Source: Candidatus Pacebacteria bacterium UBA6180
Lineage (GTDB): Bacteria; Patescibacteriota; Microgenomatia; UBA1400; PJMF01
DNA: 64,000 nt
Assembly: GCA_002422165.1 (NCBI GenBank)
Contig: DITQ01000008.1
Location: 125,082-189,081 of the forward strand
Reading direction: 5' to 3'
Notes under the pieces: model-generated
The model's input: the letters and a program-made list of their open reading frames with translations, nothing else
Told to the model about the DNA's origin: nothing
Database searches by the model: none
Position numbers and translations under genes: made by a program
Part shown: one piece after another, positions 20,345 to 64,000 of the stretch
Position numbering within the stretch: position 1 is the stretch's first letter
How the letters are laid out: each line of letters begins with the position of its first letter

Positions 20345-20347
20345 AAA

Positions 20348-21226: not shown

Positions 21227-21244
21227 TGATAGAATCTAAATATT

Positions 21245-21433
21245 ATGATTGAAAAACTACCAGAAGAAGATGTTATTGCCAACATAACTAGAAGAATGAG
21301 TGTTGAAGGTGCTGATTACTTGGAAAAAGAACGCAAGCGATTGAAAGAGCTGAAGGAAAAAGGAGTTGAGATTCCAGTAGAGATCATCGAAGCTGTTGGT
21401 GATTTAGAACCAGAGAATTCAATGGAAAAATAG
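21245..21433 (+). CDS. Hypothetical small acidic protein (62 aa)
   Basis: Coding-like composition, fills the otherwise empty gap between rmlD and convergent trmD. No SD and no recognisable motif. Confidence 0.35.
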   Translation: MIEKLPEEDVIANITRRMSVEGADYLEKERKRLKELKEKGVEIPVEIIEAVGDLEPENSMEK

Positions 21434-21441
21434 CTCTTATC

Positions 21442-22083: not shown

Positions 22084-22131
22084 AAAATCGTGATGGTTTT
22101 TCCTTAGCAATGTGGTTATTATACTAGACAT

Positions 22132-24351: not shown

Positions 24352-25325
24352 AAAAAGCATTTATCACCGGCATCACTGGCCAGGATGGTTCTTACTTGGC
24401 AGAATTACTTTTAAATAAGGGCTACAAAGTCTACGGCTTGACCAGACGCACCAGCACCCAAAATTTCGACCGCATCAAAGATATCATTCACAACCCCAAT
24501 CTAGAGTTAATTTCTGGAGATCTAATCGACCAGCATTCATTAACTTTTGCTCTCCAAGATATTCAGCCTGACGAAATTTATAACCTAGCCGCCCAATCTT
24601 TCGTCAAAGCTTCCTGGGAACAACCAGTTTTGACCGGAGAATTCACTGCCATCGGTGTCACCAGAGTTTTAGAAGCAATGCGCTTAGCTTGTCCTAAAGC
24701 CAAGTTTTACCAGGCTAGCTCAAGCGAAATGTTTGGCAAAGTGCGCGAAGTACCTCAAACTGAAGAAACCCCCTTTTACCCTCGCTCTCCCTATGGTGTG
24801 GCCAAGGTTTATGGTCACTGGATCACCGTCAATTATCGCGAATCATATGATATGTTCGCCGTCTCTGGTATTCTTTTCAATCATGAGTCGCCGCGCCGAG
24901 GACTCGAGTTCGTCACTCGTAAAATTAGCAATGCCGTCGCTCGCATCAAACTTGGCAAACAGAAATTTGTAGAGCTAGGTAATCTCGATGCCAAACGCGA
25001 CTGGGGCTATGCCAAAGACTATGTCGAGGCGATGTGGCTAATGTTGCAGCAAGATCGCGCTGATGATTACGTAGTGGCCACTGGCGAAACTCACAGCGTA
25101 CGCGAGTTTTTGGAAATCGCCTGCAAAGCAGTTAGCTTAGGCAACTACGAAGATTACTTCAGACATAATAAAAAATATGATCGCCCCGCCGAAGTTGATT
25201 TACTTATTGGCGATCCAACTAAAGCCAAAAAAGACTTAGGCTGGCAACCATCTGTCAGCTTTGAGGAATTAGTAACCTTGATGGTAGAAAAAGATCTGGA
25301 ATTCGAAAGTAAAAATCCCAATTAG
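24348..25325 (+). CDS. gmd: GDP-mannose 4,6-dehydratase
   Basis: [35 protein letters not shown]...[10 protein letters not shown]. Canonical Gmd N-terminus and Y-x3-K. Confidence 0.9.
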
Positions 25326-26535: not shown

Positions 26536-28063
26536 GTTTGAGCAAATTTTTTTAGTGCTAATTTTATTAGCAGCTATTTTTTTACGTTTTTATAATCTAC
26601 GCGATTCTCTAATGTTTCAGGGTGATCAGGGCAGAGATGCGCTAGTGGTCTCACAAATTTTCAAAGATTTAGATCCAGTTTTCATCGGACCGGTCACTAG
26701 CATTGGCAACATGTATCTAGGACCTTTTTATTATTATTTTATGCTTCCATTTTTGATGCTAAGTTATCCTGATCCGATGGGACCGGTTTTTGCGGTAGCC
26801 GCGCTTGGAGTTATCACAGTTTGGCTGCTATTTAAGGTTACTCGACAAATTTTCGGCATTAAAACTGCCTATCTAGCAACTTTTTTCTTCACTTTCTCTG
26901 CGGCAGCAGTTAACCTAAGTCGCTTCAGTTGGAATCCCAATATTGCTCCATTTTTCAGTTTGCTGATGTTTTATTTCACTTATTTAGCTTGGCAAAAAAA
27001 CAGCAAATACTGGCTAGCCGCCGCCATATGTTTTAGCTTGCTCATCCAATTGCATTACGTCACTCTTTTATCTTTTTCTGGACCAGCAATAATTCTATTA
27101 ATTCAATTAGTCGAAAAATACAAACTTACTCCAAAAAAATTCTTCATCAATCAAAAAAAATTGTTTGGCCATCTTGCTCTTTCGATAATAATTTTTCTAG
27201 TTTCCCTAGCTCCACTAGTTTTATTTGACTTCAAACATGACTTTATAAATGCTCGTTCCTTTAGCACAATCGTTGTCAAAGAAGATAGTTTCAACTTAGA
27301 GAAAAAAGCTAGAAAAGCTGGCTTTGGCACTTTGCAGAAATATTTTACACTTGACCTCAAAGATCGTGCTTCACAAGTTTTATTTGAACCAAGCTTTGGT
27401 GTTCACACTGCCAACCACCCACTACTTTTTATTACTGTCGGCTTAACACTTTTTTACCTACTCAAAACCAAAGTTCGTCTCAAAAAAGGCGAGATAGTTT
27501 TACTTGCCTATTTAGTCCCAGGCATTATCGGCGTCAGCCTATACCAACACCAAATCTACGAACATTACATTGCCTACCTCTTTCCTTTTATTTATCTTTT
27601 TTACGCTTTATTTTTTAGCAAAATCCGAAGTAGGTGGTTGCTAACCATTTGTTTATTACCTTTCGTAGTTTTTTTCATAATTAATAACGCCGGTCGATAT
27701 TGGCTTCAAGACAATAGCTGGACTATTGACGATATGCGCCATACTAGCGAAGCTATATTCGAAAGGGTCAAGGAAGGCGAGAAATATAATATAGTTTTGC
27801 TATCTGAATCTCGTGATCTCTACGGTATGAACTATCGCTATTTCCTGCATACCATGAGACAAGCTCCGGTAAAAATGGAGGATCACCTCTTGGCCAAAAA
27901 ACTTTTCATCATCAACGAAGAAAAAGTTGCCGATGACGTAGTTAGCTTACCCATTTACGAAATCATTGTCTTCAGAGGTAAATATGTCAGTGAAATTTTT
28001 CAAATAGAAAATGGCCCAGAAATTACTGTTTTAACTCGCTATAATGAACAGTCGTCACTATGA
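26510..28063 (+). CDS. Putative GT-C fold membrane glycosyltransferase
   Basis: LRFYNLRDSLMFQGDQGRDALVVSQIF... acidic loop-1 motif after TM1, about 12 TM helices. Start taken at ATG 26510 (M21 of the track ORF). Confidence 0.5.
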   Translation: MKNRLSQIKFEQIFLVLILLAAIFLRFYNLRDSLMFQGDQGRDALVVSQIFKDLDPVFIGPVTSIGNMYLGPFYYYFMLPFLMLSYPDPMGPVFAVAALGVITVWLLFKVTRQIFGIKTAYLATFFFTFSAAAVNLSRFSWNPNIAPFFSLLMFYFTYLAWQKNSKYWLAAAICFSLLIQLHYVTLLSFSGPAIILLIQLVEKYKLTPKKFFINQKKLFGHLALSIIIFLVSLAPLVLFDFKHDFINARSFSTIVVKEDSFNLEKKARKAGFGTLQKYFTLDLKDRASQVLFEPSFGVHTANHPLLFITVGLTLFYLLKTKVRLKKGEIVLLAYLVPGIIGVSLYQHQIYEHYIAYLFPFIYLFYALFFSKIRSRWLLTICLLPFVVFFIINNAGRYWLQDNSWTIDDMRHTSEAIFERVKEGEKYNIVLLSESRDLYGMNYRYFLHTMRQAPVKMEDHLLAKKLFIINEEKVADDVVSLPIYEIIVFRGKYVSEIFQIENGPEITVLTRYNEQSSL

Positions 28064-28815
28064 AAACCTATCTTTCAGTCATTTTGCCCTCTTACAATGA
28101 AAGTAAAAACATTGCTCGCGGTGTTTTGACAGAAGTCTACCAATTTTTGCTCGACTACGAGAGATCTTGGGAGTTAGTACTATCTGACGATGGAAGCAGT
28201 GATGACACTCCAAAAAAACTGCAAGAATTTGCCAAGCAGGACTCTCGCATCAAAGTCATTCTCAATCCTCATCGTGGCAAGGGCCCAACAGTCAAGGCTG
28301 GCATGCTTAAAGCAGAAGGCAGCTGGCGACTTTTTACTGATTTCGACCAATCTACTCCTCTTCGAGAAATTCGCAAACTCCTCAAACATACCTCTTCTCA
28401 TGAGGTGATCATTGGTTCTAGAGAGATAGTTGGCGCCAAACGGGAAAAAGAGCCATTTTATCGCCACCTGATGGGTCGAGGCTTCAATCTAGTTGTACAG
28501 CTTTTGGCTGTTCAAGGCACTCAAGACACCCAGTGTGGCTTCAAGCTGTTTTCTGCAACGGCAAGTGAAAAATTATTTGGCAATTTACACATTTACTCAG
28601 GAAAAAGCGAACGCCAAGACGCTTTTACTGGCGCTTTTGACGTCGAGCTGCTTTACTTAGCCAAAAAATACCACTTCAGCGTCAAAGAAGTCCCCATCCT
28701 CTGGAAACACTTCGCTACTGATCGAGTCAACCCCTTGCGAGATTCTTTTTTGATGTTTGCCGATATTTTGCGTATCAAGCTAGCAGACTTGCGTGGCAAA
28801 TATCCTAAGAGCTAG
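28060..28815 (+). CDS. Dpm1/ArnC-like GT2 (polyprenyl-phosphate sugar synthase-like), soluble
   Basis: LSVILPSYNESKNIARGV...LSDDGSSDDTPKKL...TDFDQSTP. Confidence 0.7.
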   Translation: MKTYLSVILPSYNESKNIARGVLTEVYQFLLDYERSWELVLSDDGSSDDTPKKLQEFAKQDSRIKVILNPHRGKGPTVKAGMLKAEGSWRLFTDFDQSTPLREIRKLLKHTSSHEVIIGSREIVGAKREKEPFYRHLMGRGFNLVVQLLAVQGTQDTQCGFKLFSATASEKLFGNLHIYSGKSERQDAFTGAFDVELLYLAKKYHFSVKEVPILWKHFATDRVNPLRDSFLMFADILRIKLADLRGKYPKS

Positions 28816-28834
28816 GTGGCGATATAAATGCAAA

Positions 28835-30019
28835 ATGAAAAAAGCCTTATTATTTAGTTATTTTGCTCTTTTTCTAATTTTTGCTGTTTTTTCTTTCGTA
28901 TTAACTGACCCTAATTTATTTTTACTCAAAGCCGACTGGTTCGTTAATTTTCAACTCTATCTCTGGCAAAATTTCCTCCCTCTGCAAACCTGGCGCACTG
29001 GGTTTTTTGTGGTTTTAGTGCTGCTGCTTTTTTGCAATTACATCCTCATCATTAAAAATTGGCCAAAATTAGAGTTGAATAGTCGCCGCGATTTTTGGCT
29101 GTTTCTAGCAGCTCTTAGTTTGCCACTAATTTTGTCTTATAACGCCCTTTCTTACGATCTTTTTAATTATATCTTCAACGCCAAGATGGTCATTGAGTTT
29201 GGTGCTAATCCGCACCTTAGAACTGCCTTGGAGTTTGCCGATGAGCCAATGTTGCGCTTCATGAACAATGTTCACACCGTGGCTCCATACGGTTATGGTT
29301 GGACAGGCTTGTCGCTTTTGCCTTACGCTCTTGCTGGCAGTAAATTTTTGGCTGCCTTCTTCTCTTTTAAGTTGTTTGCTTTGCTGTCTCTGTTGCTTTG
29401 TTTACTGATTAGTGAAAAACTTTTCACCAAGGTTAACTATCGCCAATTGGCCTTGTTTTTTCTAAATCCTTTAGTTCTAATCGAGGTGCTCAGCAGCGCC
29501 CATAACGATTTGTGGATGCTGTCGCCAGCCCTAGGGGCGCTCTACCTGGCAAGTAATTTTGAAAATAAAAAAACAACTAAGCTTTTATTAATTGTCCTGC
29601 TCCTTGGCATTTCTATTTCGATCAAATTCGCCACCATCCTACTACTTCCTTTTATTTTGTACTTGCTTTTGCAAAGCAAATTGCCCAAAATTCCCTACTT
29701 TTACGACTTGATGAGCTTAGCGATGTTTGCGCCACTCTTGACTGAGAGATCAAAACATTTTTTGCCCTGGTATTTACTCTGGGCTTTAATTTTTCTGCCT
29801 TGGCTCAAGAGTAGTCTCTGGCGACAGTTGCTGCTTGTCTTTTCGCTAAGTGCGCTGCTGCGCTACGTGCCTTGGATTTATTATTTGCCGTGGATGAGCT
29901 TTCATCTGGATACGAGCAATTTATTAGCCTATCAAAAAAGCGTTACCTGGCTAATTCCTGCTTTCTTCCTCTTGTCCAAAGGCCTGCTTGTCTTGTTTAA
30001 TAGAAGTCGTGCAAAATAA
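28835..30019 (+). CDS. Integral membrane protein, putative GT-C glycosyltransferase (DUF2029/GT87-like features)
   Basis: Multi-TM. ...ILSYNALSYDLFNYIFNAKMVIEFGANPH...HNDLWM. Start ambiguous: GTG at 28793 or ATG at 28835. Confidence 0.4.
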   Translation: MKKALLFSYFALFLIFAVFSFVLTDPNLFLLKADWFVNFQLYLWQNFLPLQTWRTGFFVVLVLLLFCNYILIIKNWPKLELNSRRDFWLFLAALSLPLILSYNALSYDLFNYIFNAKMVIEFGANPHLRTALEFADEPMLRFMNNVHTVAPYGYGWTGLSLLPYALAGSKFLAAFFSFKLFALLSLLLCLLISEKLFTKVNYRQLALFFLNPLVLIEVLSSAHNDLWMLSPALGALYLASNFENKKTTKLLLIVLLLGISISIKFATILLLPFILYLLLQSKLPKIPYFYDLMSLAMFAPLLTERSKHFLPWYLLWALIFLPWLKSSLWRQLLLVFSLSALLRYVPWIYYLPWMSFHLDTSNLLAYQKSVTWLIPAFFLLSKGLLVLFNRSRAK

Positions 30020-31484
30020 ATCTATTTTTTTCTTTTTGCTTTTACTCGGCCTCTACTTTGGGTTACATTTATTTCGTCTGACTGCTCTTCCAGTTTTCGC
30101 TGATGAGGCCATTTACATTCGTTGGAGTCAATTAATCATTGATGATTTTGATCGCTATTTGTTTTATCCCATGAACGATGGTAAAACTCCGCTTTTGATG
30201 TGGCTAAGCGTCCCACTGCTGCGCTTGATTGACAATCAATTGCTGGCTGCTCGCTTGGTCTCTGTACTTCTTGGGGCTGTCAGCGTTTCTTTCATTTTTT
30301 TGTTACTTCGTGAATTTAAACAAAAGCAGGCCGCTTGGTGGGGGATGTTTTTGACCATCATTGCTCCTTTTACTTTTTTCTACCACCGCCTTGCTTTGAC
30401 TGATTCCTTACTTTTATGTAATTTGATTGTCGCTTATTATTTCACCGTCAAAACTGTGCAGGGTAAAAACTGGCTAACAATTTTTGGATTAGCTTTGTTT
30501 TTTTTCCTCGCCGTCATGAGTAAAACTCCAGCTTTGCTGTTTATTCCAGTTTTTTACTTCACGATTTTTTTGACTCCAAAATTGACTTGGCGAGTACTAC
30601 TGCGACAATTTTTGCTCATTAGTTTTGGTTTAGGCTTAGCACTTTTGACTTTTTACAGCTTTAGGGTAATACCGCTTTTCACTCAGCTTTTTGCCGTTGG
30701 TGGTAATTTTCTCCAAGATCGAGAAACAATTTTATCGGCTGCTATTTGGCCAGTAGTCTGGCGCAATGGCAATTTTTTTCTCGAACAGTTAATGATTTAT
30801 TTAGGACCGATTATTTTAATTTTGGCCCTACCACTTTTCACCAAAACTAGACGTTTGCAACTGATTTTGTTTCTTTCAGCTATTTTATTTCTACTCCCCC
30901 TCATTCTCATGGGTAAAATCATCTACCCTCGATACATTCTGCCCAGTAGTTTTTTGCTGCTTAGTTCCGCAGCAATTTCACTAACTCACTTACGCTTCCA
31001 CAAGTTTTGGCGCGCGCTGCTTTTAGCTCTAATTCTTTGGCCTAGCCTGATGTTTATCCAAACCTCTTATTTCAAAGTCGACCAACTTCCGCTAAGTACA
31101 GCCGACCGTGAACAATTCTTTGAAGAATGGTCTTCAGGCCAAGGCATCAAGGAAGCTAGTGATTTAATTATTGAGCTCGCTAGAAACCAAAAAGTAGCTG
31201 TTGCCACCGAGGGTTATTTTGGCACTTTACCTGACGGGATTTTGCTTAACTTGCACAACAAAGACGTCAGTAATATTTATGTAGAAGGCATTGGCCAACC
31301 AGTGAGAGAAATTCCCAAAGAATTTGTTCGGAGAGCGGAAGATTTTGACCTCAAATTATTAGTCGTTAATTCACATCGTATGAAAATAGAACTCCCATCC
31401 TCACAGTTGCTTAGAAGCTACTGTCGACCCAATCAAGCTCCTTGCTTGCAGATTTGGCAGTTAAACGAAGAAAATTTTAAGTAA
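29988..31484 (+). CDS. GT-C membrane glycosyltransferase, ArnT/PMT-like
   Basis: LHLFRLTALPVFADEAIYIRWSQ... (DE motif), multi-TM, 498 aa. Confidence 0.7.
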   Translation: MSCLIEVVQNKSIFFFLLLLGLYFGLHLFRLTALPVFADEAIYIRWSQLIIDDFDRYLFYPMNDGKTPLLMWLSVPLLRLIDNQLLAARLVSVLLGAVSVSFIFLLLREFKQKQAAWWGMFLTIIAPFTFFYHRLALTDSLLLCNLIVAYYFTVKTVQGKNWLTIFGLALFFFLAVMSKTPALLFIPVFYFTIFLTPKLTWRVLLRQFLLISFGLGLALLTFYSFRVIPLFTQLFAVGGNFLQDRETILSAAIWPVVWRNGNFFLEQLMIYLGPIILILALPLFTKTRRLQLILFLSAILFLLPLILMGKIIYPRYILPSSFLLLSSAAISLTHLRFHKFWRALLLALILWPSLMFIQTSYFKVDQLPLSTADREQFFEEWSSGQGIKEASDLIIELARNQKVAVATEGYFGTLPDGILLNLHNKDVSNIYVEGIGQPVREIPKEFVRRAEDFDLKLLVVNSHRMKIELPSSQLLRSYCRPNQAPCLQIWQLNEENFK

Positions 31485-49547: not shown

Positions 49548-50042
49548 ATGGACAAGATCCAAGCCAAATCGAGACTCAAAAAGCCACTCAACAAGCCTCC
49601 AGCTCCCAATCCTACCCCTGCGCCCTCTAGGCTGGCAAAGCTGATCAAACCTCCAAGGAAGGTCAAGGAACAAAATAAGCGCCTGCAAGCTTACGGTCGC
49701 TACATTATTTGCCTCGTCATCGCCATGATGTCTTACTACGGGCTATTTTTCCTGATGAGTCAAGTTTATCCTAGCCAAATTCAACATTTTCTATGGACCA
49801 ACAGCTATTTGCCTTTCTTTACCTTGCTCTTCGTTGGTAATTTTTTCTTGCTAACTTTTTTGTTTTTGGATAAAAAAATCGGCTTCTACTTGGCAATCTG
49901 GCTCAATTTGGTCATTTATTTAAAAATTAGCCAGGTCAGGTTAGACTTTTACAGCCTAGGGTTACTGCTTTTACTAGCTGCGATTTTGCTTTTACCAGAT
50001 ATAATAAGAAATTATGCCAACAACTCAAACAACAAAAGATAG
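49548..50042 (+). CDS. Membrane protein with basic, Pro-rich N-terminus (hypothetical)
   Basis: SD ctGGAGaaATG. N-terminal KKPLNKPPAPNPTPAPSRL, then about 4 TM helices. Overlaps the metG start by 29 nt. Confidence 0.5.
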   Translation: MDKIQAKSRLKKPLNKPPAPNPTPAPSRLAKLIKPPRKVKEQNKRLQAYGRYIICLVIAMMSYYGLFFLMSQVYPSQIQHFLWTNSYLPFFTLLFVGNFFLLTFLFLDKKIGFYLAIWLNLVIYLKISQVRLDFYSLGLLLLLAAILLLPDIIRNYANNSNNKR

Positions 50043-51468
50043 CTTTTACCTCACTACCACTTTGCCCTACGTCAACGCTGCACCACACATTGGATTCGCC
50101 TTGGAAATCATCGAGGCGGACGTGATCGCTCGCCACCAGAGAGAAATTCTCGGCACAGAAGTCATTTTTAACACTGGTACCGACGAACATGGTCAAAAAA
50201 TTTGGGAAAAGGCGGTTGAGCGAGGCTTGGAGCCTCAAGTTTATTGTGATAGGTGGGCGGCTAAATTCTCAGAACTCAAGGAGATGCTTAATTTGAGTTT
50301 TGACCACTTCATTCGCACCACTGATGACAAGCACGTCGCTGCTGCCCAAGAATTCTGGCGCCGCTGCGACAAAAATGGAGACATTTACAAAGCCAAATAT
50401 CAAATTAAATATTGCGTCGGCTGCGAATTAGCCAAGACTGAAAGCGAGTTGGCTGAGGGACGCTGTCCACTACACCCCAAGCAAGAAATCGAGTTGCGCG
50501 AGGAAGAAAATTACTTTTTTCGCTTTAGCAAATACCAAGACAAATTACTTGAACTTTACGAACAAAACCCGAATTTTGTCAAACCCAAGCATCGCTTGCG
50601 AGAAATTCAGGCTTTTGTCACTGCAGGCCTCGAGGATTTCAGCATCTCACGCCTAAAGAGTAAAATGCCTTGGGGCATCGCTGTGCCTGACGACAACAAA
50701 CATGTCATGTATGTTTGGTTCGACGCTCTGGTCAACTACATTTCTACACTAGATTGGCCGCAGGATCAGGCCAAGTTTGAACGCTTCTGGCCAGGCATAC
50801 AACTAGCTGGCAAAGACAACTTGCGCCAACAATCAGCCATGTGGCAAGCAATGCTGCTCTCCGCTCAGCTGCCACCAAGCAAACAAATCCTTATCAACGG
50901 TTTTATTGGTGTCGATGGCCAGAAAATGAGCAAGTCGCTTGGCAACGTCATTAGTCCTCAACAACTAATAGAGCGCTATGGCATTGATGCCGCTCGCTAT
51001 CTACTAATCAATTTGGGCACTTTTGGTGAAGACATGGATGTAAGCTTTGAGAAATTAGATATCAATTACAACGCTGCACTAGCCAACGGTCTTGGCAACC
51101 TCTGTTCACGGGTCGCCAAAATGGCTGAACAGGTCGACTTGAGTGCTTCGACCAAAAAACCCGCAGCCCCAGAGCAATATTTAAGCTTGATGAAAAATTT
51201 CCAGCTCAATGAAACACTGAATTTTGTGTTAGAACAAATTGGCGAGACAGATAAATTCCTCGCAGAGCACAAACCTTGGCAAAAGGAAGAGCAAGAGAAA
51301 AAACAAATTCTAGCGAAAGCAGTCGAAAAAATTAAAGTAATTGCTTTGATGTTGCAGCCTTTCATGCCCACAACTGCTATCATCATCAACAAGCATTTTA
51401 CTGGCCAAATCCAAGCTTTTGCTGCTGGCCTTTTCCCGAGAATTGAAGCCGCCAAAACCAGTAAATAA
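50014..51468 (+). CDS. metG: Methionyl-tRNA synthetase (short form)
   Basis: FYLTTTLPYVNAAPHIGFALE (HIGH-type), CxxC...C zinc knuckle (CVGCE...CP), KMSKSLGN. Confidence 0.9.
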   Translation: MPTTQTTKDSFYLTTTLPYVNAAPHIGFALEIIEADVIARHQREILGTEVIFNTGTDEHGQKIWEKAVERGLEPQVYCDRWAAKFSELKEMLNLSFDHFIRTTDDKHVAAAQEFWRRCDKNGDIYKAKYQIKYCVGCELAKTESELAEGRCPLHPKQEIELREEENYFFRFSKYQDKLLELYEQNPNFVKPKHRLREIQAFVTAGLEDFSISRLKSKMPWGIAVPDDNKHVMYVWFDALVNYISTLDWPQDQAKFERFWPGIQLAGKDNLRQQSAMWQAMLLSAQLPPSKQILINGFIGVDGQKMSKSLGNVISPQQLIERYGIDAARYLLINLGTFGEDMDVSFEKLDINYNAALANGLGNLCSRVAKMAEQVDLSASTKKPAAPEQYLSLMKNFQLNETLNFVLEQIGETDKFLAEHKPWQKEEQEKKQILAKAVEKIKVIALMLQPFMPTTAIIINKHFTGQIQAFAAGLFPRIEAAKTSK

Positions 51469-51474
51469 CCTGCC

Positions 51475-52281
51475 ATGCAACTTTTTGACACTCATTGCCA
51501 CTATAATCTCGAGCCTCTGCTCGCAAATTGGCAGAAACTTTGGGGTGATAGTCAACAAGCAGGAATAAATCGAAGTTTAATTGTCGGAACCACTTTGGCT
51601 AGCAGCCAATTAGCTGTCGAGCAAGCCTCAAGCGACGAGCGGCTTTACGCCTCCTTAGGCATTCACCCAGGCCATGTAGATCAAGCTGCTGATCTGGAGC
51701 AAGCAGTGAGTGAACTTAAAAAAATGGCAGCGAATAAACAAGTAATCGCCTTCGGCGAGGTAGGCTTGGATTATTATCATTTGTCAAATAATCTAGACCA
51801 GCAAGCAATTAAAATCGAACAAAAACACCTTTTCCTCGCCATGATTAATTTGGCTAAAGAAGCTAATTTGCCACTCATTTTACATGTCCGCGATCGAGGT
51901 GAAGCAGCCTATTTTGAAACCTTAGAGCTTTTGGAGAAGCATTGGTCCTTCGAGCAAGCAATAATTTTTCACTGCGTTTCTGGCCCTCTTGAATACGTGC
52001 GTCGTGCTCTGGCGATGAAAAATAGCTATTTTGGCTTCGATGGCAACTTGACTTTCAAAAACGCACATTACCAGCGAGAAATTTTCGAGCTGGTGCAACA
52101 AGCCGATTCCCGCAAAATTCTACTCGAGACCGATGCGCCTTACTTGGCTCCTGAGCCTTACCGTGGACAAGTCTGCGAACCTGCGATGATTACTTCAACC
52201 GCTAATTTTGCAGGACAAAAATTAGGTTTAGACTTAAACCTAACCTACCAAAATTCGCTGCGCGCCTTTGGCCTTTTATAG
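51475..52281 (+). CDS. tatD: TatD-family metal-dependent DNase/hydrolase
   Basis: MQLFDTHCHYN..., ...GEVGLDYY..., LPLILHVRD, ...ETDAPYL. Confidence 0.85.
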   Translation: MQLFDTHCHYNLEPLLANWQKLWGDSQQAGINRSLIVGTTLASSQLAVEQASSDERLYASLGIHPGHVDQAADLEQAVSELKKMAANKQVIAFGEVGLDYYHLSNNLDQQAIKIEQKHLFLAMINLAKEANLPLILHVRDRGEAAYFETLELLEKHWSFEQAIIFHCVSGPLEYVRRALAMKNSYFGFDGNLTFKNAHYQREIFELVQQADSRKILLETDAPYLAPEPYRGQVCEPAMITSTANFAGQKLGLDLNLTYQNSLRAFGLL

Positions 52282-52303: not shown

Positions 52304-53800
52304 ATGGTCAGAAATTACTTTCGCCGCCACCCCATCCGCACCAGAAGAGCTTTGGAGATTTTGCCTGGCGCCTTTTCCTGGTTTTTGATCCTTTTTCCGA
52401 TCTGGGGCTCCTTCGTAATTCCACAAGCCGTCGCCTACTACGTGATTATTTTCGCCGTTTATTGGCTGTACCGCTCATTGATGCTGACTTTTTTCGCCAC
52501 TATCTCGCACTTCAAAATTCGCGCTTTCAGCAAATATGATCACATTCCTGAACTCAAGGCGCGTTTCAAGGACAAGTGGGACCAAATTCACCACATCATC
52601 GTTATTCCGACTTACCAAGAACCAGTCGCAACGTTAGAAAGAACGCTGGAAGGCCTAAGCAAGCAAACTTTTCCAAAAAGCAATCTTCACATCATGCTCT
52701 CTTTCGAAGAACGAGAAGGGGCAGTGGTTGATGAAAAAGCCAAGGTATTGCTCAAAAAATTTGGCAGAGTCTTTGGCCACCTCTGGGTCAGCAAACACCC
52801 CGACGTCGTCGGCGAGATCAAAGGTAAATCTTCCAACACTTGCTATGGCGCCAAAGCTGCCAAAGCGCTTTTAGTTGACCAAGAAGGGATGCCAATCGAA
52901 AACATCACCATCACCAGTGAAGATGCGGACGCCATTTTTCACCCCCACTATTTTTCTTACCTGACCCACTCTTTCCTAACTAGCGAAAAGCCTTACAACC
53001 GCAGCTGGCAGGGCGGAATTAGTTTCTACAACAATATCTGGCGCGTGCCTGCGCCGATTCGCGTCTTGGCTGCCATTCAATCAGTAATGCAGATTTACAT
53101 TTTGTCACGCAAAGATCGCCTGATTAATTTTTCAACTTACTCGACTACCCTCAAGCATGTCGACGAAATTGGCTACTGGGACACCGACGTTATTCCTGAG
53201 GATTACCGGCTTTTCTTCAAATCTTACTTCGCCAAAAAAGGCGACTTCGAGGTCGAGCCGATTTATCTACCCATCTACGCTGATGCTGTTCAGGCCGATG
53301 GTTTCTGGCGCACAATGCACAACCAATATGAACAAATCAAGCGCTGGGCCTGGGGAGTTAGTGACGACGCCTACATCATTCGCCAGTATGTCTTGACTGA
53401 AGGTTTGCCTTTTTGGGATAAAACTATTCGCGTCCTTAAGGTTATAGAAGACCATTTCCTCTGGCCAGTCAACTGGTTTGCGGTAACCGTTTCTGCCATG
53501 TTGCCCCCCCTGCTCAATGATGAATTCAACCGCACTATCATCGGTAAAACTTTGCCTCAAGTCACCTCCACTTTATTGACCTTGTCGCTGATCGCTATGC
53601 TGACCATCTTCATTATTGATTCAAGCAATCGCCCCGCGCACCACAACAAGCGCGGTTTCTTTTCCTACCTAATGCAGCCGCTTGAATTCATTTTAATACC
53701 GGTGATTGGCTTTTTCTTCTCTGCCTTACCAGGCATTGACGCTCACACTCGGCTGATGCTTGGTAAATACATGGAGTACAAGGTAACGGAAAAAGTCTAA
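52304..53800 (+). CDS. Processive membrane GT2 glycan synthase (cellulose/chitin/hyaluronan-synthase-like)
   Basis: N-terminal TM helices; IIVIPTYQEPVATLERTL; ITSEDADAIF (DxD); QIKRWAWG (QxxRW); C-terminal TM bundle. Confidence 0.7.
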   Translation: MVRNYFRRHPIRTRRALEILPGAFSWFLILFPIWGSFVIPQAVAYYVIIFAVYWLYRSLMLTFFATISHFKIRAFSKYDHIPELKARFKDKWDQIHHIIVIPTYQEPVATLERTLEGLSKQTFPKSNLHIMLSFEEREGAVVDEKAKVLLKKFGRVFGHLWVSKHPDVVGEIKGKSSNTCYGAKAAKALLVDQEGMPIENITITSEDADAIFHPHYFSYLTHSFLTSEKPYNRSWQGGISFYNNIWRVPAPIRVLAAIQSVMQIYILSRKDRLINFSTYSTTLKHVDEIGYWDTDVIPEDYRLFFKSYFAKKGDFEVEPIYLPIYADAVQADGFWRTMHNQYEQIKRWAWGVSDDAYIIRQYVLTEGLPFWDKTIRVLKVIEDHFLWPVNWFAVTVSAMLPPLLNDEFNRTIIGKTLPQVTSTLLTLSLIAMLTIFIIDSSNRPAHHNKRGFFSYLMQPLEFILIPVIGFFFSALPGIDAHTRLMLGKYMEYKVTEKV

Positions 53801-53840
53801 AGACTTGCTTTTATTGCCGCCATCCCGCTAAAATGAAGTC

Positions 53841-55427
53841 ATGAAATTCATCGAACTGCTCAAACGTGCCGACCGCTATTTCGACCGCCAGACACCAATT
53901 CTGGTTTTGTTTTTGCTTATTTTGGCTTTGCGCTTGCCTAATTTTTTCGAACCTTACTGGTACGGCGATGAAGCCATCTACCTGACATTAGGCACTGCTT
54001 TGCGTGAGGGTGGCGCGCTTTACACCACCATTATCGATCACAAGACTCCTCTCATTTATTATTTGGCGATGGTACCTAATCAGTTTTACTTCCGCTTGCT
54101 CAACTTAGTTTGGATGTTGGTAACCACCGCCTTGTTTTTCAAATTTGCCAAAACTTTGTTTAAGAAAACTATTTGGGCCTGGTTGGCAACTTTGGTCATG
54201 GTGCTTTTGACCACCTTGCCGTGGCTGGAGGGTCATATTCCCAATGGGGAATTGTTTGTCATGGGTTTTGTCATGGCAGGGGCCATTTTGTTTACCAAAA
54301 GCGATGTTTGGAAACTATTTTTTAACACCAAAAAAACTACCTTTGTTCGTAATTCGCGCCAAAAAGAAATTTGCTATCTTCTAAGCGCTGGCGCTTTCAT
54401 GGGACTGGGCATTTTGACCAAAGTCCCGGCCATCTTGGACGTGGCTGCTTTTCTAGCTATTTTCTGGCTCATTTTGGCTGGCCAGTTTTTCAACCCTCAA
54501 ACCAAGGCTAAAGAGTTAGGGCAAACTTTTACTTGGTTGCTCAAAAGAGGCTTGATTTTTATGACTGGCTTGCTGCTGCCATTGCTCGCTTCAGTAGTCT
54601 ACTTCGTCGCTGTTGGTAGTGGCCAAGACTACCTAGATTATGGTTTGCTCTACAACTTTCGCTACAGTCAGTCTTGGTCGCTCGATCTAGGCAATGAACT
54701 GCTTAATTTCGCTTTTAGCATGCCGGGCAAAACCATCATCTTGCTGATAGTAGTGATGCTCATCACCCTGAACGTGCGCAAGCTTAAGAAAAGAACTCAA
54801 TTTATCTGCCTCTATTTCCTCTTCACTCTCTATTCTGTGTTGTTGTCTAGCAGACCTTACCCGCACTACTTCATCCAGATGGTGCCAGCTTTGGCTTTGT
54901 TACTTATTGATTTACTGCAAAACTGGAAAGAAGTTAAAGGAACTGCTCTCAAAATCGGCTTAATCGCTGTAACTGCCTATGTAATGCTTAGCCTGGGTTT
55001 TAAACCATATTCAACTGGAGAATATTATAAGAAATTTTGGCAATTTGCCACTTTGAAAATTACCCAAGAAGAATATGAAAACTCCTTCGACAGCAATGTC
55101 AAAGACAACCGTGAAGTCAGCAGGCTTATTCATGAGATGGGGGTCAAGAAAATTTTCATCTGGGGAACCAATCCTCTCCTTTATGCACAAAGCAAAACTG
55201 TACCCACCTCGCGCTTCACTGTTGCTTTTCACATCAAGGACTTCGATGATCAGGCTAGAACTTTTTCTCAGATCGAACGCGAAGAGCCAAAATTAATCGT
55301 CGTCATGAAAAACGAGCGCGACAGCTTCCCGCAACTAGAGGCTTATCTTAGTAAGTATTATCTGCCCAATACCCAGTTTGATAGAATGGTCTTATATCTA
55401 AGACAAGAACTACCTGAGATAAAATAA
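53841..55427 (+). CDS. GT-C membrane glycosyltransferase, ArnT/PMT-like
   Basis: LRLPNFFEPYWYGDEAIYLTLGTAL...DHKTPLIYY (DE motif), about 12 TM helices. Confidence 0.7.
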   Translation: MKFIELLKRADRYFDRQTPILVLFLLILALRLPNFFEPYWYGDEAIYLTLGTALREGGALYTTIIDHKTPLIYYLAMVPNQFYFRLLNLVWMLVTTALFFKFAKTLFKKTIWAWLATLVMVLLTTLPWLEGHIPNGELFVMGFVMAGAILFTKSDVWKLFFNTKKTTFVRNSRQKEICYLLSAGAFMGLGILTKVPAILDVAAFLAIFWLILAGQFFNPQTKAKELGQTFTWLLKRGLIFMTGLLLPLLASVVYFVAVGSGQDYLDYGLLYNFRYSQSWSLDLGNELLNFAFSMPGKTIILLIVVMLITLNVRKLKKRTQFICLYFLFTLYSVLLSSRPYPHYFIQMVPALALLLIDLLQNWKEVKGTALKIGLIAVTAYVMLSLGFKPYSTGEYYKKFWQFATLKITQEEYENSFDSNVKDNREVSRLIHEMGVKKIFIWGTNPLLYAQSKTVPTSRFTVAFHIKDFDDQARTFSQIEREEPKLIVVMKNERDSFPQLEAYLSKYYLPNTQFDRMVLYLRQELPEIK

Positions 55428-55430
55428 AAC

Positions 55431-55811
55431 ATGGAGCTAACTTTTCGAAGTGAAACCAAAACCAAAAACTGGCGCTATCTGCTTTTTTTACCCAAAGAGC
55501 TGCGACCATTAGGAGTCTTGACTCTTGGAATTAGCTTGATCATGTTGTTGATCAGCTTAGCTTTTTACTTTCCCTTGCAGAATCAAGTCCCGCTTTTTTA
55601 TTCACTGCCGAGCGATCAGCAGCTAGTTGATAAAAAATTCCTTTTTATCCTGCCAACTTTATCTATCCTCATCAATTTTTTTCACATGCTGATCATCAAG
55701 TTCAATAAAGAAATTCATGAATATGTATTAAAAATGTTCGTGCATCTAACTTTCCTGCTGCAAATTTTGCTTTTGGCGATTCTGCTTAGAATCATTATAA
55801 TAGTTACCTAA
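55431..55811 (+). CDS. Small integral membrane protein (hypothetical; about 4 TM)
   Basis: 126 aa, hydrophobic; sits between the GT-C and phosphotransferase genes. Confidence 0.45.
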   Translation: MELTFRSETKTKNWRYLLFLPKELRPLGVLTLGISLIMLLISLAFYFPLQNQVPLFYSLPSDQQLVDKKFLFILPTLSILINFFHMLIIKFNKEIHEYVLKMFVHLTFLLQILLLAILLRIIIIVT

Positions 55812-56869
55812 TGTGGTCCTTTACTTTGAGTTTCTTTTTGGCGGTGTTGCTTGCTCCACTCGTGATTTATTTCTATCGTAAAAACGCTTGGCTGGATGAC
55901 CCAGAAGTCAACCTTCACGCCAAAAAAACTCATCGTGAAGCCGTGCCGCGCGGTGGAGGAATAGTCATTTTTTTGGCTACTTTCCTAGCAGCAGCCATGC
56001 TGCTAGATTTTGACAAATATTTGTTGGCGATTTTTCTTGGCGCCTCTATTTTGACTTTTGTTGGCCTGCTTGACGATATCCTTGATCTCAATCCATATTT
56101 TCGCCTATTCACCGGTCTTTTTGCTGCCTTGATCGTAGTTGGCGCCGGCATCGGCATCGCCTACGTCAGCAATCCTTTTGGTCCTGGAGTCATTCACCTC
56201 GATCAACCGCGTCTTTACTTCGAGTTGTTTGGGACTGATCATTCTATCTGGCTACTCTCAAGTTTGTTTGCCATTTTTTTCATCGTTTGGAACATGAACA
56301 TCATCAACTGGGCCAAGGGTGTCGATGGCCAGCTACCTGGTTTTGTGGCCGTTTCCTGTCTTTTTATTGCCATTTTGGCGGGCCGTTTCGTCGATGCGCC
56401 GACACAGTTTAATGTCGCTAATTTAGCTCTGATCGTCAGCGGCGCTTTTGCAGGCTTACTAGTCTGGAATTTCTACCCACAGCGTATTATGCCTGGCTAT
56501 GGAGCGGGCTCTCTGGCGGGCTTTTTCTTGAGTGTCTTGGCAATTCTCTCTGGAGCCAAGGTCGCCACTATGCTGATGGTGCTGGCGGTGCCGACTGCAG
56601 ACGGTTTGTTTACCATCTTGCGGCGCTTGCTAGCCGGCAAATCACCTTTTTGGGGCGACCGCGGCCACTTGCACCACAAGCTGATGGACTACTACGGCTG
56701 GGGCAAGCGCCGCATCGCCATCTTTTATATCCTAAGCAGCACTGCTCTTGGAGGACTCTCACTTTTACTTGACAGCACTGGCAAACTCATTGCCATCATC
56801 ACCACCACTGTCATTGTCTTTGCTTTTTTGATATATACTAAGCTTGCTAGCAACAATAAATCAAAATGA
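55811..56869 (+). CDS. Polyprenyl-phosphate N-acetylhexosamine-1-phosphate transferase (WecA/TagO/MraY family)
   Basis: DDPEVNLHAKKTHREAVPRGGGI (compare WecA DKPNYRKRHQG.IPLVGG), NMNIINWAKGVDGQLPG (compare NAFNMVDGIDGL), 352 aa with about 10 TM helices. Confidence 0.75.
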   Translation: MWSFTLSFFLAVLLAPLVIYFYRKNAWLDDPEVNLHAKKTHREAVPRGGGIVIFLATFLAAAMLLDFDKYLLAIFLGASILTFVGLLDDILDLNPYFRLFTGLFAALIVVGAGIGIAYVSNPFGPGVIHLDQPRLYFELFGTDHSIWLLSSLFAIFFIVWNMNIINWAKGVDGQLPGFVAVSCLFIAILAGRFVDAPTQFNVANLALIVSGAFAGLLVWNFYPQRIMPGYGAGSLAGFFLSVLAILSGAKVATMLMVLAVPTADGLFTILRRLLAGKSPFWGDRGHLHHKLMDYYGWGKRRIAIFYILSSTALGGLSLLLDSTGKLIAIITTTVIVFAFLIYTKLASNNKSK

Positions 56870-57816
56870 ACAATCCGCTCTGGCTACTCATCAAATCTGC
56901 CCGCCCCAAGCAGTGGCTAAAAAATTTTGCCCTTTACGCTGCGCTAGTTTTTTCTGGCTTTTTCTTCTATCAGGAGGCTGGGCAAGCACCTTATTTCGTG
57001 ATCGTCACCTACGCTTTTTTGATTTTTTGTGTCCTGACTTCAAGTATTTACTTAATCAATGATCTGATCGATATCGAATCGGACCGCAAACACCCTTTCA
57101 AGAAAAACCGCCCTTTGGCCGCTGGCAGTTTGCCCGTACCCATCGCCGTTTTTAGCGTGGTCACTGGCTTGGCGATAGTTTTTTTTCTGTCTCTGAATTT
57201 GCCGGTTTTCTTCAAAATCTTAGCTTTTGCTTACTTCATCTTGCAAATTCTCTACTCGACCCATCTTAAAAATTATGCCATTTTTGACATTGTGGCCATT
57301 GCCCTAGGCTTCTTGATCCGCGTCTACGCCGGTGCAGTAGTGGTCAATTTGCACATGAACGTCTGGTTTTTGCTAACGGTGGTATCTGTGTCGCTCTTCA
57401 TGGCTGTGGGCAAGCGGCAAAGTGAACGCACCTTGCTTAGCAGTAGCCACGTCGAGTTTGCCCGCAAGAGCCTCGATCGTTATAGTCCGCGCCTGCTCGA
57501 CCAGTATACTTCGATGTTCGCCACCTCGACTTGGCTAACTTACGCCATTTTCACCTTCCAAAGCTATACTGGTAGCGTTAACTTACTCTACGAGAAATTT
57601 CCCGAGCTCTACTTCATCTTGCCAAAAACTCTCCAGTCACAAAAGCTACTGATGCTGACTTTGCCCTTCGTAATTGTCGGGGTGATGCGCTATTTGCAGC
57701 TGATTTATGAAGAAAATAAAGGCGAGGCTCCAGAGGATGTCCTACTCAAGGATCGAACTTTGCTAACCACGGTCTTTCTGTGGTTTGCGGCAGTGATTTT
57801 TGTAATATATGCTTGA
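56866..57816 (+). CDS. UbiA-family prenyltransferase, decaprenyl-phosphate phosphoribosyltransferase (DPPR synthase)-like
   Basis: RPKQWLKNFALY..., YLINDLIDIESDRKHPFKKNRPLAAG (NDxxDxxxDR plus K..RP.AAG), about 8 TM helices. Confidence 0.6.
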   Translation: MNNPLWLLIKSARPKQWLKNFALYAALVFSGFFFYQEAGQAPYFVIVTYAFLIFCVLTSSIYLINDLIDIESDRKHPFKKNRPLAAGSLPVPIAVFSVVTGLAIVFFLSLNLPVFFKILAFAYFILQILYSTHLKNYAIFDIVAIALGFLIRVYAGAVVVNLHMNVWFLLTVVSVSLFMAVGKRQSERTLLSSSHVEFARKSLDRYSPRLLDQYTSMFATSTWLTYAIFTFQSYTGSVNLLYEKFPELYFILPKTLQSQKLLMLTLPFVIVGVMRYLQLIYEENKGEAPEDVLLKDRTLLTTVFLWFAAVIFVIYA

Positions 57817-58105
57817 AGAAAATAATTTGTTTCACTCAAGATCACGTTCGACTGAAATTAAAGCTTTCCTCAATTAACGATCTTCTTCTCACTCGATGAA
57901 GTCGCTGTCTATAATCAACTCAACAGTTAATCTTACAGTTCAGCTCCTTCAACGGACTTGAGAGAAACAAATTTTTTCTAAGAATCAGTAAATCAAACGG
58001 GTCGGAATTTAGACAAATTGCTGCCAAATTAATTAAAATCTGCTTCTCCAACAGACTTTATTGGAGTGTATTTTTACCTATTTTTTCACTTAGGCAAATT
58101 GTTCT

Positions 58106-61915: not shown

Positions 61916-62983
61916 TCACGACTTTTTCACTAAAGAGACAAGCAATCGCTCATATTTTTTTGCTGTCTGTTTCCAGAGATATTTTCCCAAAATTCTTTCC
62001 TTAAGCTTACTACTCATCATCTTTGCTTTATCTTGATTTCTCAACAAACTCTCAATGCCAGCTTTAACACTTTCATCCGTCGGTTCAACTAATAAACCTG
62101 AAACACCATCTTTAATTATTTCTCTAGTGCCTCCCACATTTGTCGCCACTACTGCACAGGAAGCCAAACCAGCTTCTAGCAAAATTGTTGGCAAACCCTC
62201 GTGATGAGTTGATGGGTGTACAAAAATTGTCGTTTGCTGCAATAAATCCATAACTCGCTGATGTGAAACTCCACCAACTCGCTCAAAAACGACTTCTTTA
62301 TAAAGTGGCTTGAGTTCTTTAGCAACTTGATCAAAAAAACTCGCTCCCTTGGCAGCAATGTTTCGACCAATAAATCTAACGCTAATTTTGGAATTTTTAG
62401 GTTTTTTGTCGATCAACAAAGACTCGCTGACACTATTTGTAATTACCGCTATTTTTCCAGCATTGCCAATTTGCTTAATCCAAAAATCTTTAGTAGCCTG
62501 ACTGACTACGGTAATTTGATCATAAACTTTACTAAGCAAAGGCATTAACAATAAATCAATTAACTTGGCAATCAATTTGACTACTGCATTTTTGTGTTGT
62601 GGGTGACTAGCGCAGTGATCTGTCAAAATTGACTTAGCACCCAAATATTTGGCTGCCAAAAAACCCCACCAGGCTGTGTCAAAAAAACGCGTGTGAGCAT
62701 TCACCAAATCATATTGATTGGCCTTTAGTTTTTTAAGCAGCTGGTAAAGCTCGAGATAGTTGGGCAAGGCAAATTGACCTGGCAAAATCTCCCAACACCC
62801 CACTCGGTAGATGTTAAAACCTCGGTAGCGCTCAAGTTTTGAGCTTTGGTTGGTGTTGTAAGTCAAGACATCTACATTTACATTCTTGTTTTGTCTCATC
62901 AATTCGCCATACAACTCTTCGATATAGCGCTCACTTCCTCCAAGGTGCGGGTGGAAATATGGAGTTAAGACTAAGATTTTCAT
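61916..62983 (-). CDS. Glycosyltransferase family 4 (GT-B)
   Basis: HEGLPTILLEAGLASCAVVATNVGGTREII (EX7E), N-terminal MKILVLTPYFHPHLGG. Confidence 0.75.
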   Translation of the reverse strand: MKILVLTPYFHPHLGGSERYIEELYGELMRQNKNVNVDVLTYNTNQSSKLERYRGFNIYRVGCWEILPGQFALPNYLELYQLLKKLKANQYDLVNAHTRFFDTAWWGFLAAKYLGAKSILTDHCASHPQHKNAVVKLIAKLIDLLLMPLLSKVYDQITVVSQATKDFWIKQIGNAGKIAVITNSVSESLLIDKKPKNSKISVRFIGRNIAAKGASFFDQVAKELKPLYKEVVFERVGGVSHQRVMDLLQQTTIFVHPSTHHEGLPTILLEAGLASCAVVATNVGGTREIIKDGVSGLLVEPTDESVKAGIESLLRNQDKAKMMSSKLKERILGKYLWKQTAKKYERLLVSLVKKS

Positions 62984-63735
62984 GCCCCCACCTCTCTGCT
63001 AAGTTTCCAAGATTTATTTGCGCTAGCGAAAAGAGCTGACCATAAGGTTTGTAGTCGGTAAGTCAAAATAAACCACAAATGCTCTAAGCCCGTCAGCACC
63101 AATTTTTGTTTACTCTGGCCAAATTCGCGTTCGTAATGATGAATGTGAAACTCATCCAAAGCAAGATCTTGATTTAAAGCTGCAGCTAGTTTGATTTCTG
63201 GCGAGAGATTCCAACCGCCTTGCTTTAAATGTAATTTGCCAAGCGCAGGCTTTCTAATCACCCACATACCACTGAGTATATCGCTTAGCGCTCTGCCATA
63301 TAAGAGTCTGACTTCACTGTTGAGCACCCAAACTCCAGCCTGGCGCCAAAGCGAAATCGCTTGTCCATCAACTAGAGGAAAGCGACTACACAAAACCATG
63401 TCGAGGCAATTTTTCTGCAAAAATTTTACTGCCTCTGCGACTTGGTCGAGTGGATAAGTGCCATCGCCATCCAAAGTCACAATGATTTCATGCGTGGCTG
63501 CTTTCATTCCCTTCACTAGCGAATAACCGTAGCCAATGCCTAATTTATCGACTCTAGGCTCTTTAATGACTCGTGCGCCAGCTTTTTTAGCTACCAATGC
63601 TGTTTTGTCAGTTGACTGATTGTCAACAACGATAACTTCAGCGGCTATTTGGAGGGCACGTTGAACTAAATGGCCGATGCCCTCTGCTTCATTGCGGCAA
63701 GGAATGATCAAAGAGATGTTGAGTTTATTTTTCAT
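62980..63735 (-). CDS. Dpm1/ArnC-like GT2 (polyprenyl-phosphate sugar synthase-like)
   Basis: MKNKLNISLIIPCRNEAEGIGHLVQRAL...VIVVDNQSTDKTALVAKKAGARV...TLDGDGTYP. Start moved to the ATG at comp. 63733-63735; it overlaps the upstream gene's stop by 11 nt. Confidence 0.7.
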   Translation of the reverse strand: MKNKLNISLIIPCRNEAEGIGHLVQRALQIAAEVIVVDNQSTDKTALVAKKAGARVIKEPRVDKLGIGYGYSLVKGMKAATHEIIVTLDGDGTYPLDQVAEAVKFLQKNCLDMVLCSRFPLVDGQAISLWRQAGVWVLNSEVRLLYGRALSDILSGMWVIRKPALGKLHLKQGGWNLSPEIKLAAALNQDLALDEFHIHHYEREFGQSKQKLVLTGLEHLWFILTYRLQTLWSALFASANKSWKLSREVGA

Positions 63736-64000
63736 CTTGCACCTCCCAAATAGCCATTGCTCCATTCTGATAAACCAGCTTTAGGCCATCTCTCTGGCTG
63801 ATCTGCCTGATCAACTCTCCATCTGTAAGCGACAAAATAACTGGCGACCACACGTTATAAGCAAATGATTGCCACGCTTCATCGTTGGCGCGAGCCCAAG
63901 CCATACTACGGCCAGAAACGACTAGAAGTTGCGCTTCGCTGTCACCAAGATCAGTCAATTCTCTGGCTGCTGCGGCTATTTTGCTAGCATTTCTCGAGTA
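63725..64000 (-). CDS. C-terminal fragment of an upstream gene (possibly another GT-C-like membrane protein), partial at the window edge
   Basis: ...LLVVSGRSMAWARANDEAWQSFAYNVWSPVILSLTDGELIRQ...AIWEVQDEK*. The reading frame is open to the window end. The tail resembles the C-termini of the PMT-like paralogs (e.g. ...GEVWSFYEN). Confidence 0.35.
   Translation of the reverse strand, partial: YSRNASKIAAAARELTDLGDSEAQLLVVSGRSMAWARANDEAWQSFAYNVWSPVILSLTDGELIRQISQRDGLKLVYQNGAMAIWEVQDEK

Follow-up and report, generated by a model that had tools for sequence, protein, structure and literature searches.

The 64-kb window analysed here, that is, the whole stretch of DNA under study, has a G+C content of about 43% and carries, at positions 52304-57816, an operon of five genes. 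This operon is best explained as encoding those steps of a conserved glycan pathway of the cell envelope that take place at the membrane, in a bacterium of the Pacebacteria type (Microgenomates/Patescibacteria): a lipid-linked donor of a ribose-type sugar would be made, and the sugar attached to a surface polymer outside the cell, a reading to which we assign a probability of about 0.6. All five genes lie on the plus strand and begin with ATG. They encode a membrane glycosyltransferase of family GT2 (52304..53800, 498 aa), identified by its QxxRW motif and synthase-like fold; a GT-C glycosyltransferase (53841..55427, 528 aa), identified by fold comparison; a small membrane protein (55431..55811, 126 aa), for which hydropathy predicts three transmembrane (TM) helices; a polyprenyl-phosphate N-acetylhexosamine-1-phosphate transferase (PNPT) of the WecA/MraY family (55811..56869, 352 aa), assigned through Pfam Glycos_transf_4; and a predicted polyprenyl-phosphate 5-phospho-beta-D-ribofuranosyltransferase (PPPRS, or decaprenyl-phosphate 5-phosphoribose (DPPR) synthase) of the UbiA superfamily (56866..57816, 316 aa), assigned through NCBIfam and a relative in the PDB. 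The GT2 and GT-C genes are separated by 40 nt and the GT-C and small protein genes by 3 nt, while the small protein gene overlaps that of the PNPT by 1 nt (TAATG), and the latter overlaps the UbiA-family gene by 4 nt (ATGA, 56866-56869). An earlier note on this DNA had described five co-directional, near-contiguous genes; coordinates, strand and the 4-nt overlap are all borne out, and each of the five labels that it gave to the products stands on family, motif and fold evidence.

The UbiA-family phosphoribosyltransferase

The UbiA-family protein carries the motif NDLIDIESDRKHPFKKNRPLAAG and matches Pfam UbiA with 66 bits. On the NCBIfam equivalog for decaprenyl-phosphate phosphoribosyltransferase (NF008978) it scores 208.9 bits, a marginal pass against the cutoff of 207, and the three DPPR-synthase models yield 209, 193 and 154 bits, whereas the best model of a conventional prenyltransferase gives 37.6 bits, which is over 100 bits short of the DPPR-synthase model. 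The PRK08238 model (482 aa) is also matched, with 141 bits, the match being confined to model positions 194-434, which correspond to its UbiA part; we take this model to represent the HAD-fused type, as its size and the position of the match agree with that layout without confirming it. Each of the three DPPR-synthase models, NF008978 included, is also matched by all 20 homologues tested, at E ≤ 1e-5.

The sole relative in the PDB is Rv3806c of Mycobacterium tuberculosis (8J8J/8J8K, solved by cryo-electron microscopy; E 4e-36). In Rv3806c, Mg is coordinated by N73 and D77, ribose is bound by N73 and Q135, and the 5'-phosphate by K28, Y70 and Y157, while the pyrophosphate is held by a Lys/Arg cluster of R22, K87, R90 and K143, plus Y138; ordinary UbiA enzymes do not conserve these phosphoribose-binding sites (PMC10994848). 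A HMMER alignment places R22 at R13, K28 at K19, Y70 at Y62, N73 at N65, D77 at D69, K87 at K79, R90 at R82, Q135 at Q127, Y138 at Y130, K143 at K135 and Y157 at F149 of the protein described here. The last of these is the only change among the 11 mapped residues of the site for phosphoribosyl pyrophosphate (PRPP), and the same substitution occurs in some mycobacteria. The residues of the motif NDxxDxxxDRxHPFKKxRP are invariant in 20 homologues, with the exceptions of F78, which is nearly invariant, and of position 80, which is not conserved, and a Lys/Arg cluster, as is typical of Rv3806c, takes the place of the second Asp-rich motif. Because the equivalog model is passed, Rv3806c is the only structural relative and the residues of the PRPP site are conserved, the protein is identified, by homology to Rv3806c, as a PRPP-dependent polyprenyl-phosphate 5-phosphoribosyltransferase.

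The alternative is a conventional prenyltransferase that serves the synthesis of a quinone, of heme O or of an archaeal-type lipid, its glycan setting being coincidental. The Pfam UbiA match would be compatible with such an enzyme, and the JGI automatic annotation does call many homologues '4-hydroxybenzoate polyprenyltransferase', while PGAP names several close homologues decaprenyl-phosphate phosphoribosyltransferase. However, models of such enzymes reach at most 38 bits against 209 for DPPR synthase, the Rv3806c-type Lys/Arg cluster stands where the second Asp-rich motif would be expected, and no quinone-pathway gene was found in the window by Pfam scans, which, like the other Pfam searches of the window reported below, covered most predicted open reading frames (ORFs) of at least 80 aa (a few short ORFs, the thioredoxin, the primase and one overlapping ORF were left out). 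A conventional prenyltransferase is thus extremely improbable, and the previous assignment to the DPPR-synthase type rather than to the quinone prenyltransferases, together with the remark that no quinone-pathway genes lie beside it, is upheld.

Partner proteins and conserved gene order

Since phmmer against PDB sequences yielded no match for the GT2, the GT-C or the WecA-like protein, fold comparison took its place. In the case of the GT-C protein, for which sequence searches of Pfam, NCBIfam and the PDB were all without a match, the comparison indicates a GT-C fold with high confidence, the closest solved structures being PIG-M, ArnT and ALG3, users of polyprenyl-phosphate-monosaccharide donors. 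An invariant D43-E44 pair directly follows the first TM helix, R338 and Y340-P341-H342-Y343 are likewise invariant, and the protein ends in an alpha/beta extracytoplasmic domain; it therefore displays the multi-TM fold, the acidic motif in the first extracytoplasmic loop and the likeness to solved GT-C enzymes that characterize this superfamily. The GT-C label is hence confirmed at the level of the fold, with ArnT, to which the protein had been likened, among the best structural matches, and the protein is predicted to be the user of the lipid-linked pentofuranose.

The GT2 protein gives only weak GT2 sequence matches (26 bits), below the family thresholds for characterised synthases. Its fold resembles those of hyaluronan and cellulose synthases, with a GT-A domain and both N-terminal and C-terminal TM helices, and its invariant motifs are D207xD209, E299-D300 and Q344xxR347W348 (QIKRW here). 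The DxD, ED and QxxRW motifs and the fused TM region are those of the class of processive membrane GT2 synthases that comprises BcsA, hyaluronan synthase (HAS) and chitin synthase. Both the motif and the fold agree with the synthase-type GT2 that had been proposed, processivity being putative.

The product of 55811-56869 matches Pfam Glycos_transf_4 (PF00953) with 75 bits, in agreement with its earlier placement in the WecA/MraY family, but scores 68 bits on the WecA equivalog TIGR02380, far under the cutoff of 326, and deviates from the canonical motif of WecA. Its conserved motifs in 78 sequences are D88-D89, NMNxxNWxK169GxD172G and GDRGHxHH; residues 161-174 read NMNIINWAKGVDGQ, and K169 is conserved in the 78 homologues. 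WecA and MraY presumably carry an Asp at this position (NxxNxxDGxDG), and the presence of a Lys in its place suggests that donor specificity or metal binding of the PNPT may differ from those of WecA. To judge by profile and motifs, the protein is a divergent polyprenyl-phosphate N-acetylhexosamine-1-phosphate transferase of the WecA/MraY (PNPT) family.

In the small protein, the loop that follows the first of the three predicted TM helices is conserved (Q50, P54, L65, K68). The protein itself has no match in Pfam, and seven of its 58 homologues give a weak match to DUF1648 (best E 0.0013). It could act as a flippase or as an accessory subunit; since neither it nor any of the 58 homologues matches GtrA or SMR in Pfam, the idea of a flippase stays unsupported.

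A scan of GTDB species genomes detected a relative of the UbiA-family protein in 389 species; the best 80 loci (57-86% identity) are all from Patescibacteria, and the close homologues all come from metagenome-assembled genomes (MAGs) of Candidatus Pacebacteria, Woesebacteria or Patescibacteria. Proteins identical to the GT-C and the GT2 of the window are encoded on a 236.7-kb contig present in NCBI, JGI and ENA, and the genome is accordingly a Microgenomates-type one of the candidate phyla radiation (CPR). Many of the operon-bearing MAG records are titled "uncultured Pseudomonadales bacterium", and two others "Vitreimonas sp." and "Limisphaerales"; these deposited titles probably reflect taxonomic mislabelling. 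As traced by tblastn and ORF clustering, the conserved order is methionyl-tRNA synthetase (MetRS), TatD, GT2, GT-C, small protein, PNPT and UbiA, and the order of the last five recurs in dozens of species genomes and is not due to chance. Of the loci compared, 63 have 4.8 kb or more of upstream sequence. In all 63 the PNPT gene lies directly upstream of the UbiA-family gene, commonly with the 4-nt overlap; 59 contain the GT2 and 58 a GT-C of the 53841-55427 type, and in 52 the small protein was detected in its slot between the GT-C and WecA-like genes. Where this GT-C type is missing, another type occupied its slot or followed the UbiA-family gene in the loci examined (PMT_2 in L004 and L056; PTPS_related and a GT87-like protein in L051 and L062). 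Across loci, the GT2 keeps 61-90% identity and the PNPT 54-78%, as against 37-75% in the GT-C and 28-58% in the small protein. The values for the GT2 exceed those of the neighbouring MetRS (50014-51468; 37-72% across related species), which points to a very strong constraint on the synthase.

Directly 3' of the UbiA-family gene, on the same strand, 34 of 75 loci have a PMT-family GT-C (PF02366 and PMT_4TMC, about 460 aa; for example, L030:10961-12352), and 20 of 75 have a sugar nucleotidyltransferase in that position. Since the window has only a 289-nt spacer there (57817-58105), the PMT-type gene has been either lost here or gained in the relatives.

The proposed pathway and its alternatives

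In the systems described by Kelly et al. 2024 (PMC11127046), a PPPRS, a flippase and a GT-C add ribofuranose (Ribf) extracytoplasmically, while an epimerase of the short-chain dehydrogenase/reductase (SDR) class leads to xylofuranose (Xylf), and DprE1/E2 homologues encoded in the same cluster lead to arabinofuranose (Araf). The linkage of PPPRS and GT-C is also found here: the two share one operon in the window, and a GT-C gene lies beside the UbiA-family gene in the loci checked. In the pathway that we propose, the UbiA-family enzyme would transfer ribose-5-phosphate from PRPP to polyprenyl phosphate at the cytoplasmic face of the membrane, generating polyprenyl-phosphate-beta-D-ribofuranose-5-phosphate, a predicted activity that is supported by its homology to Rv3806c and its conserved active site. 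An unlinked phosphatase may then remove the 5'-phosphate, and the lipid-linked ribofuranose would be flipped outward, with the 3-TM small protein as a candidate helper. The adjacent GT-C would pass the pentofuranose to an acceptor glycan outside the membrane, and this acceptor would most likely be the polymer of the hyaluronan/cellulose-synthase-like GT2, or else a glycan built on polyprenyl-pyrophosphate-N-acetylhexosamine primed by the WecA-like enzyme, whose gene is translationally coupled. The steps that follow phosphoribosyl transfer are suggested by the fold of the GT-C, the conserved adjacency of the genes and what Kelly et al. 2024 (PMC11127046) described. Elsewhere in the window, GT-C genes adjoin GtrB/DPM1-like GT2 genes (7640-8386, 28060-28815), an arrangement that favours this reading, as it suggests that every GT-C has a donor synthase as its partner.

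A number of observations weigh against the pathway as drawn. The NF008978 score exceeds its cutoff by just 2 bits. Of the donor pathway, the first step alone is recognisably encoded. Neither a PAP2 phosphatase of the Rv3807c type nor a HAD phosphatase was found in the cluster, in the Pfam-scanned ORFs of the window or among the annotated conserved neighbours, and the UbiA-family protein, at 316 aa, has no extra domain that could represent the phosphatase of the three-component system. Flippases of the MATE, SMR or GtrA types gave no match in the same sets of genes, and the small protein has three TM helices, not four. The three GtrB/DPM1-like GT2 genes of the window could supply the GT-C with other lipid-linked donors, and an epimerase is possibly encoded elsewhere in the genome, the search having covered the 64-kb window and 86 related loci.

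As to the sugar, the earlier note had suggested a pentofuranose donor of either the ribose or the arabinose type, with no DprE1/DprE2-like gene visible in the window. The latter statement is confirmed by the Pfam scans, in which FAD_binding_4 has no match among the scanned ORFs, and by tblastn with DprE1 (a query verified against the PDB), which found no match in the 1.49 Mb made up of the window and 86 loci. The DprE1 and DprE2 pair that marks the decaprenyl-phospho-arabinose pathway of the Corynebacterineae was thus not encountered in this sequence, nor did the Pfam-annotated recurrent neighbour clusters include an oxidoreductase pair. Of the two sugars proposed, ribose is favoured: as no linked epimerase was found in the window or the 86 loci, ribofuranose is the default sugar, while arabinofuranose is unsupported. 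A full Araf pathway of the mycobacterial type, with DprE1/DprE2-like enzymes encoded elsewhere and a GT-C that assembles an arabinan-like polymer, or decorates one, on a glycan primed by WecA and ligated to the wall by an LCP enzyme, could draw on the first enzyme being the one found in mycobacteria, on the WecA-like initiator, LCP ligase, RmlB/RmlD and Wzx flippase of the window, which echo the logic of the arabinogalactan linker, and on the GT-C of a related locus, which weakly matches Pfam GT-C_AftD. It is nevertheless improbable in view of the negative searches just described, all the more so since the known non-actinobacterial Araf systems keep their DprE1/E2 homologues in the PPPRS cluster (PMC11127046).

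It is also conceivable, although unlikely, that these genes are neighbours and do not form one pathway, the UbiA product feeding another GT-C while the 53841-55427 protein uses a polyprenyl-phosphate-hexose made by a GtrB/DPM1-like GT2. The window does hold some ten GT-C-like ORFs along with the three small GT2 genes, structurally the GT-C best matches mannosyltransferases and ArnT, and the PMT-type GT-C that directly follows the UbiA-family gene in 34 of the 75 related loci could be the true partner. The cluster furthermore lies within housekeeping synteny (MetRS, TatD, TrxB, DnaG), and adjacency may therefore partly reflect a frozen gene order. Against this, the GT-C is kept in 58 of 63 species loci despite its fast divergence (37-75% identity) and is replaced by another GT-C when lost, every other GT-C gene of the window adjoins a GtrB-like gene of its own, and the window contains no PMT gene 3' of the UbiA-family gene. 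Finally, dephosphorylation might not take place at all, so that the 5-phosphoribosyl group itself would be transferred, or the lipid-linked 5-phosphoribose would be an end product, in either case yielding an anionic decoration akin to a teichoic acid. Such an outcome would fit the lack of a PAP2 or HAD phosphatase in the cluster and its conserved neighbours, and the 5'-phosphate-binding residues K19, Y62 and F149 are conserved, which indicates that the primary product carries the phosphate. Yet Rv3807c is dispensable in mycobacteria, so that unlinked phosphatases can perform this step, and the flipping of a doubly anionic head group is unfavourable. Every characterised system, moreover, dephosphorylates the lipid-linked sugar before flipping (PMC11127046), and transfer of the phosphorylated sugar is therefore considered very improbable.

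Genomic surroundings, significance and known systems

The operon is preceded on its own strand by genes for MetRS (50014-51468) and for a TatD hydrolase (51475-52281), and the gene for thioredoxin reductase is located 289 nt past the UbiA-family gene, on the opposite strand. MetRS and TatD were considered as parts of the system, being co-directional and conserved in position, but were set aside, as metG and tatD frequently occur as a housekeeping pair. The start of MetRS is overlapped by 29 nt by the gene for a membrane protein of 164 aa with a Lys/Pro-rich N-terminus and no Pfam match (49548-50042, plus strand); a homologous ORF is found in the same position in 50 related loci. Rfam identifies only a tRNA-Gln in the window.

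The window is rich in other glycosylation genes. About nine further GT-C-like ORFs are of the PMT_2 or PTPS_related/YfhO types, or BLAST-related to those: 1449-2972(-), 8383-10119(+), 10052-11701(-), 11694-13340(-), 13333-14910(-), 14867-16540(-), 26450-28063(+), 28793-30019(+) and 29988-31484(+). Several are mutually paralogous, none is BLAST-related to 53841-55427, and 8383-10119(+) and 10052-11701(-) are long convergent ORFs whose 3' ends share 68 nt. Their number represents an unusually heavy investment in extracytoplasmic glycosylation for a small CPR genome. Three small GT2 proteins of the size of GtrB/DPM1 (248-261 aa) are encoded at 7640-8386(+), 28060-28815(+) and 62980-63765(-); two of these genes directly adjoin GT-C genes and the third a GT4 gene, and the three proteins are probably polyprenyl-phosphate hexose synthases that feed neighbouring GT-Cs. 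A wall-polysaccharide locus (16537-25325) encodes a Wzx-type flippase (16537-17985), an LCP ligase (18057-19166), RmlB and RmlD of the dTDP-rhamnose pathway (19322-21226), a UDP-glucose dehydrogenase (22132-23412), an SDR resembling UXS and epimerases (23413-24351) and a GDP-mannose 4,6-dehydratase (24348-25325); together with the WecA-like gene, its make-up is reminiscent of a wall glycopolymer system with a linkage unit.

The envelopes of CPR/Patescibacteria are chemically almost uncharacterised, and these organisms rely on surface contact with their hosts. The operon predicts a specific and unusual surface sugar, a pentofuranose derived from a PRPP-made polyprenyl-phosphate donor, and would extend the paradigm of pentofuranose modification to a deep-branching lineage. 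The novelty implied by the earlier suggestion of such a donor pathway outside Actinobacteria is overstated, since non-actinobacterial lipid-linked pentofuranose systems have been published, including those of Citrobacter and of other Gram-negative and Gram-positive candidates (PMC11127046) and the older one of Pseudomonas aeruginosa TfpW, which arabinosylates pilin, and since close homologues already bear the name of the phosphoribosyltransferase in PGAP annotation. Nothing is overturned, as the key step follows known enzymology and its enzyme is already named by automated annotation. A literature search found no paper on the decaprenyl-phosphate phosphoribosyltransferase/UbiA pathway in Patescibacteria/CPR. 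What is new is the lineage, the clade-wide operon of the core genome, the coupling to a PNPT and a synthase-type GT2, and the lack of recognised phosphatase or flippase modules; the GT-C family and a small membrane protein without family assignment are candidates for new functions in donor handling. A more far-reaching possibility, which should be viewed as speculative, is that the cluster provides this whole CPR clade with the core apparatus for making an essential wall polysaccharide, synthesised by the GT2 and pentofuranosylated outside the cell with a donor exported by the 3-TM protein or by the GT-C itself. If this were true, the system would be a minimal counterpart of mycobacterial arabinogalactan chemistry, organised independently, that manages with none of the known families of phosphatase, flippase or epimerase and offers a new solution to donor export.

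Several known systems come close to the operon or to parts of it. The GT2 shares with class I hyaluronan synthases, BcsA-type enzymes and the minimal PcManGT (PDB 6YV7) a GT-A domain, interface and TM helices, and the DxD, ED and QxxRW motifs, but has neither a PilZ domain nor accessory subunits. With the decaprenyl-phospho-arabinose pathway of mycobacteria and corynebacteria (Rv3806c, Rv3807c, DprE1/DprE2, Rv3789 and the Aft/Emb GT-Cs), the operon has in common a homologous first enzyme with a conserved active site, a GT-C neighbour, and a WecA-type initiator and LCP ligase in the genome region; in M. tuberculosis, the GT-C that adjoins Rv3806c is presumably Rv3805c (AftB). In contrast to that pathway, no PAP2 phosphatase of the Rv3807c type, DprE1/DprE2 or GtrA-type Rv3789 was found here, and the lipid carrier is probably other than decaprenol. 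In P. aeruginosa, D-arabinofuranosylation of group IV pilin involves the PPPRS PSPA7_6246 and the GT-C TfpW (bioRxiv 10.1101/2020.04.19.049825); there, as here, a stand-alone PPPRS without a fused phosphatase is paired with a GT-C outside Actinobacteria, although the Pseudomonas cluster includes DprE1/E2 homologues and acts on pilin, whereas no linked epimerase was found here. In Citrobacter youngae O1/O2, ORF15 is the PPPRS, ORF14 a MATE flippase and ORF12 a GT-C of family GT136 (PMC11127046). Both systems place the gene for a PRPP-dependent phosphoribosyltransferase of the UbiA superfamily next to a GT-C gene, in each case ArnT comes closest to the GT-C, by sequence or by structure, among solved relatives, and Ribf is the default where an epimerase is lacking. 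The operon described here lacks both a MATE flippase and a HAD phosphoribose-phosphatase domain fused to the PPPRS, and adds a WecA-like initiator and a synthase-type GT2; and while the C. youngae genes belong to a serotype-variable O-antigen locus, those described here show core-genome synteny across a whole CPR clade.

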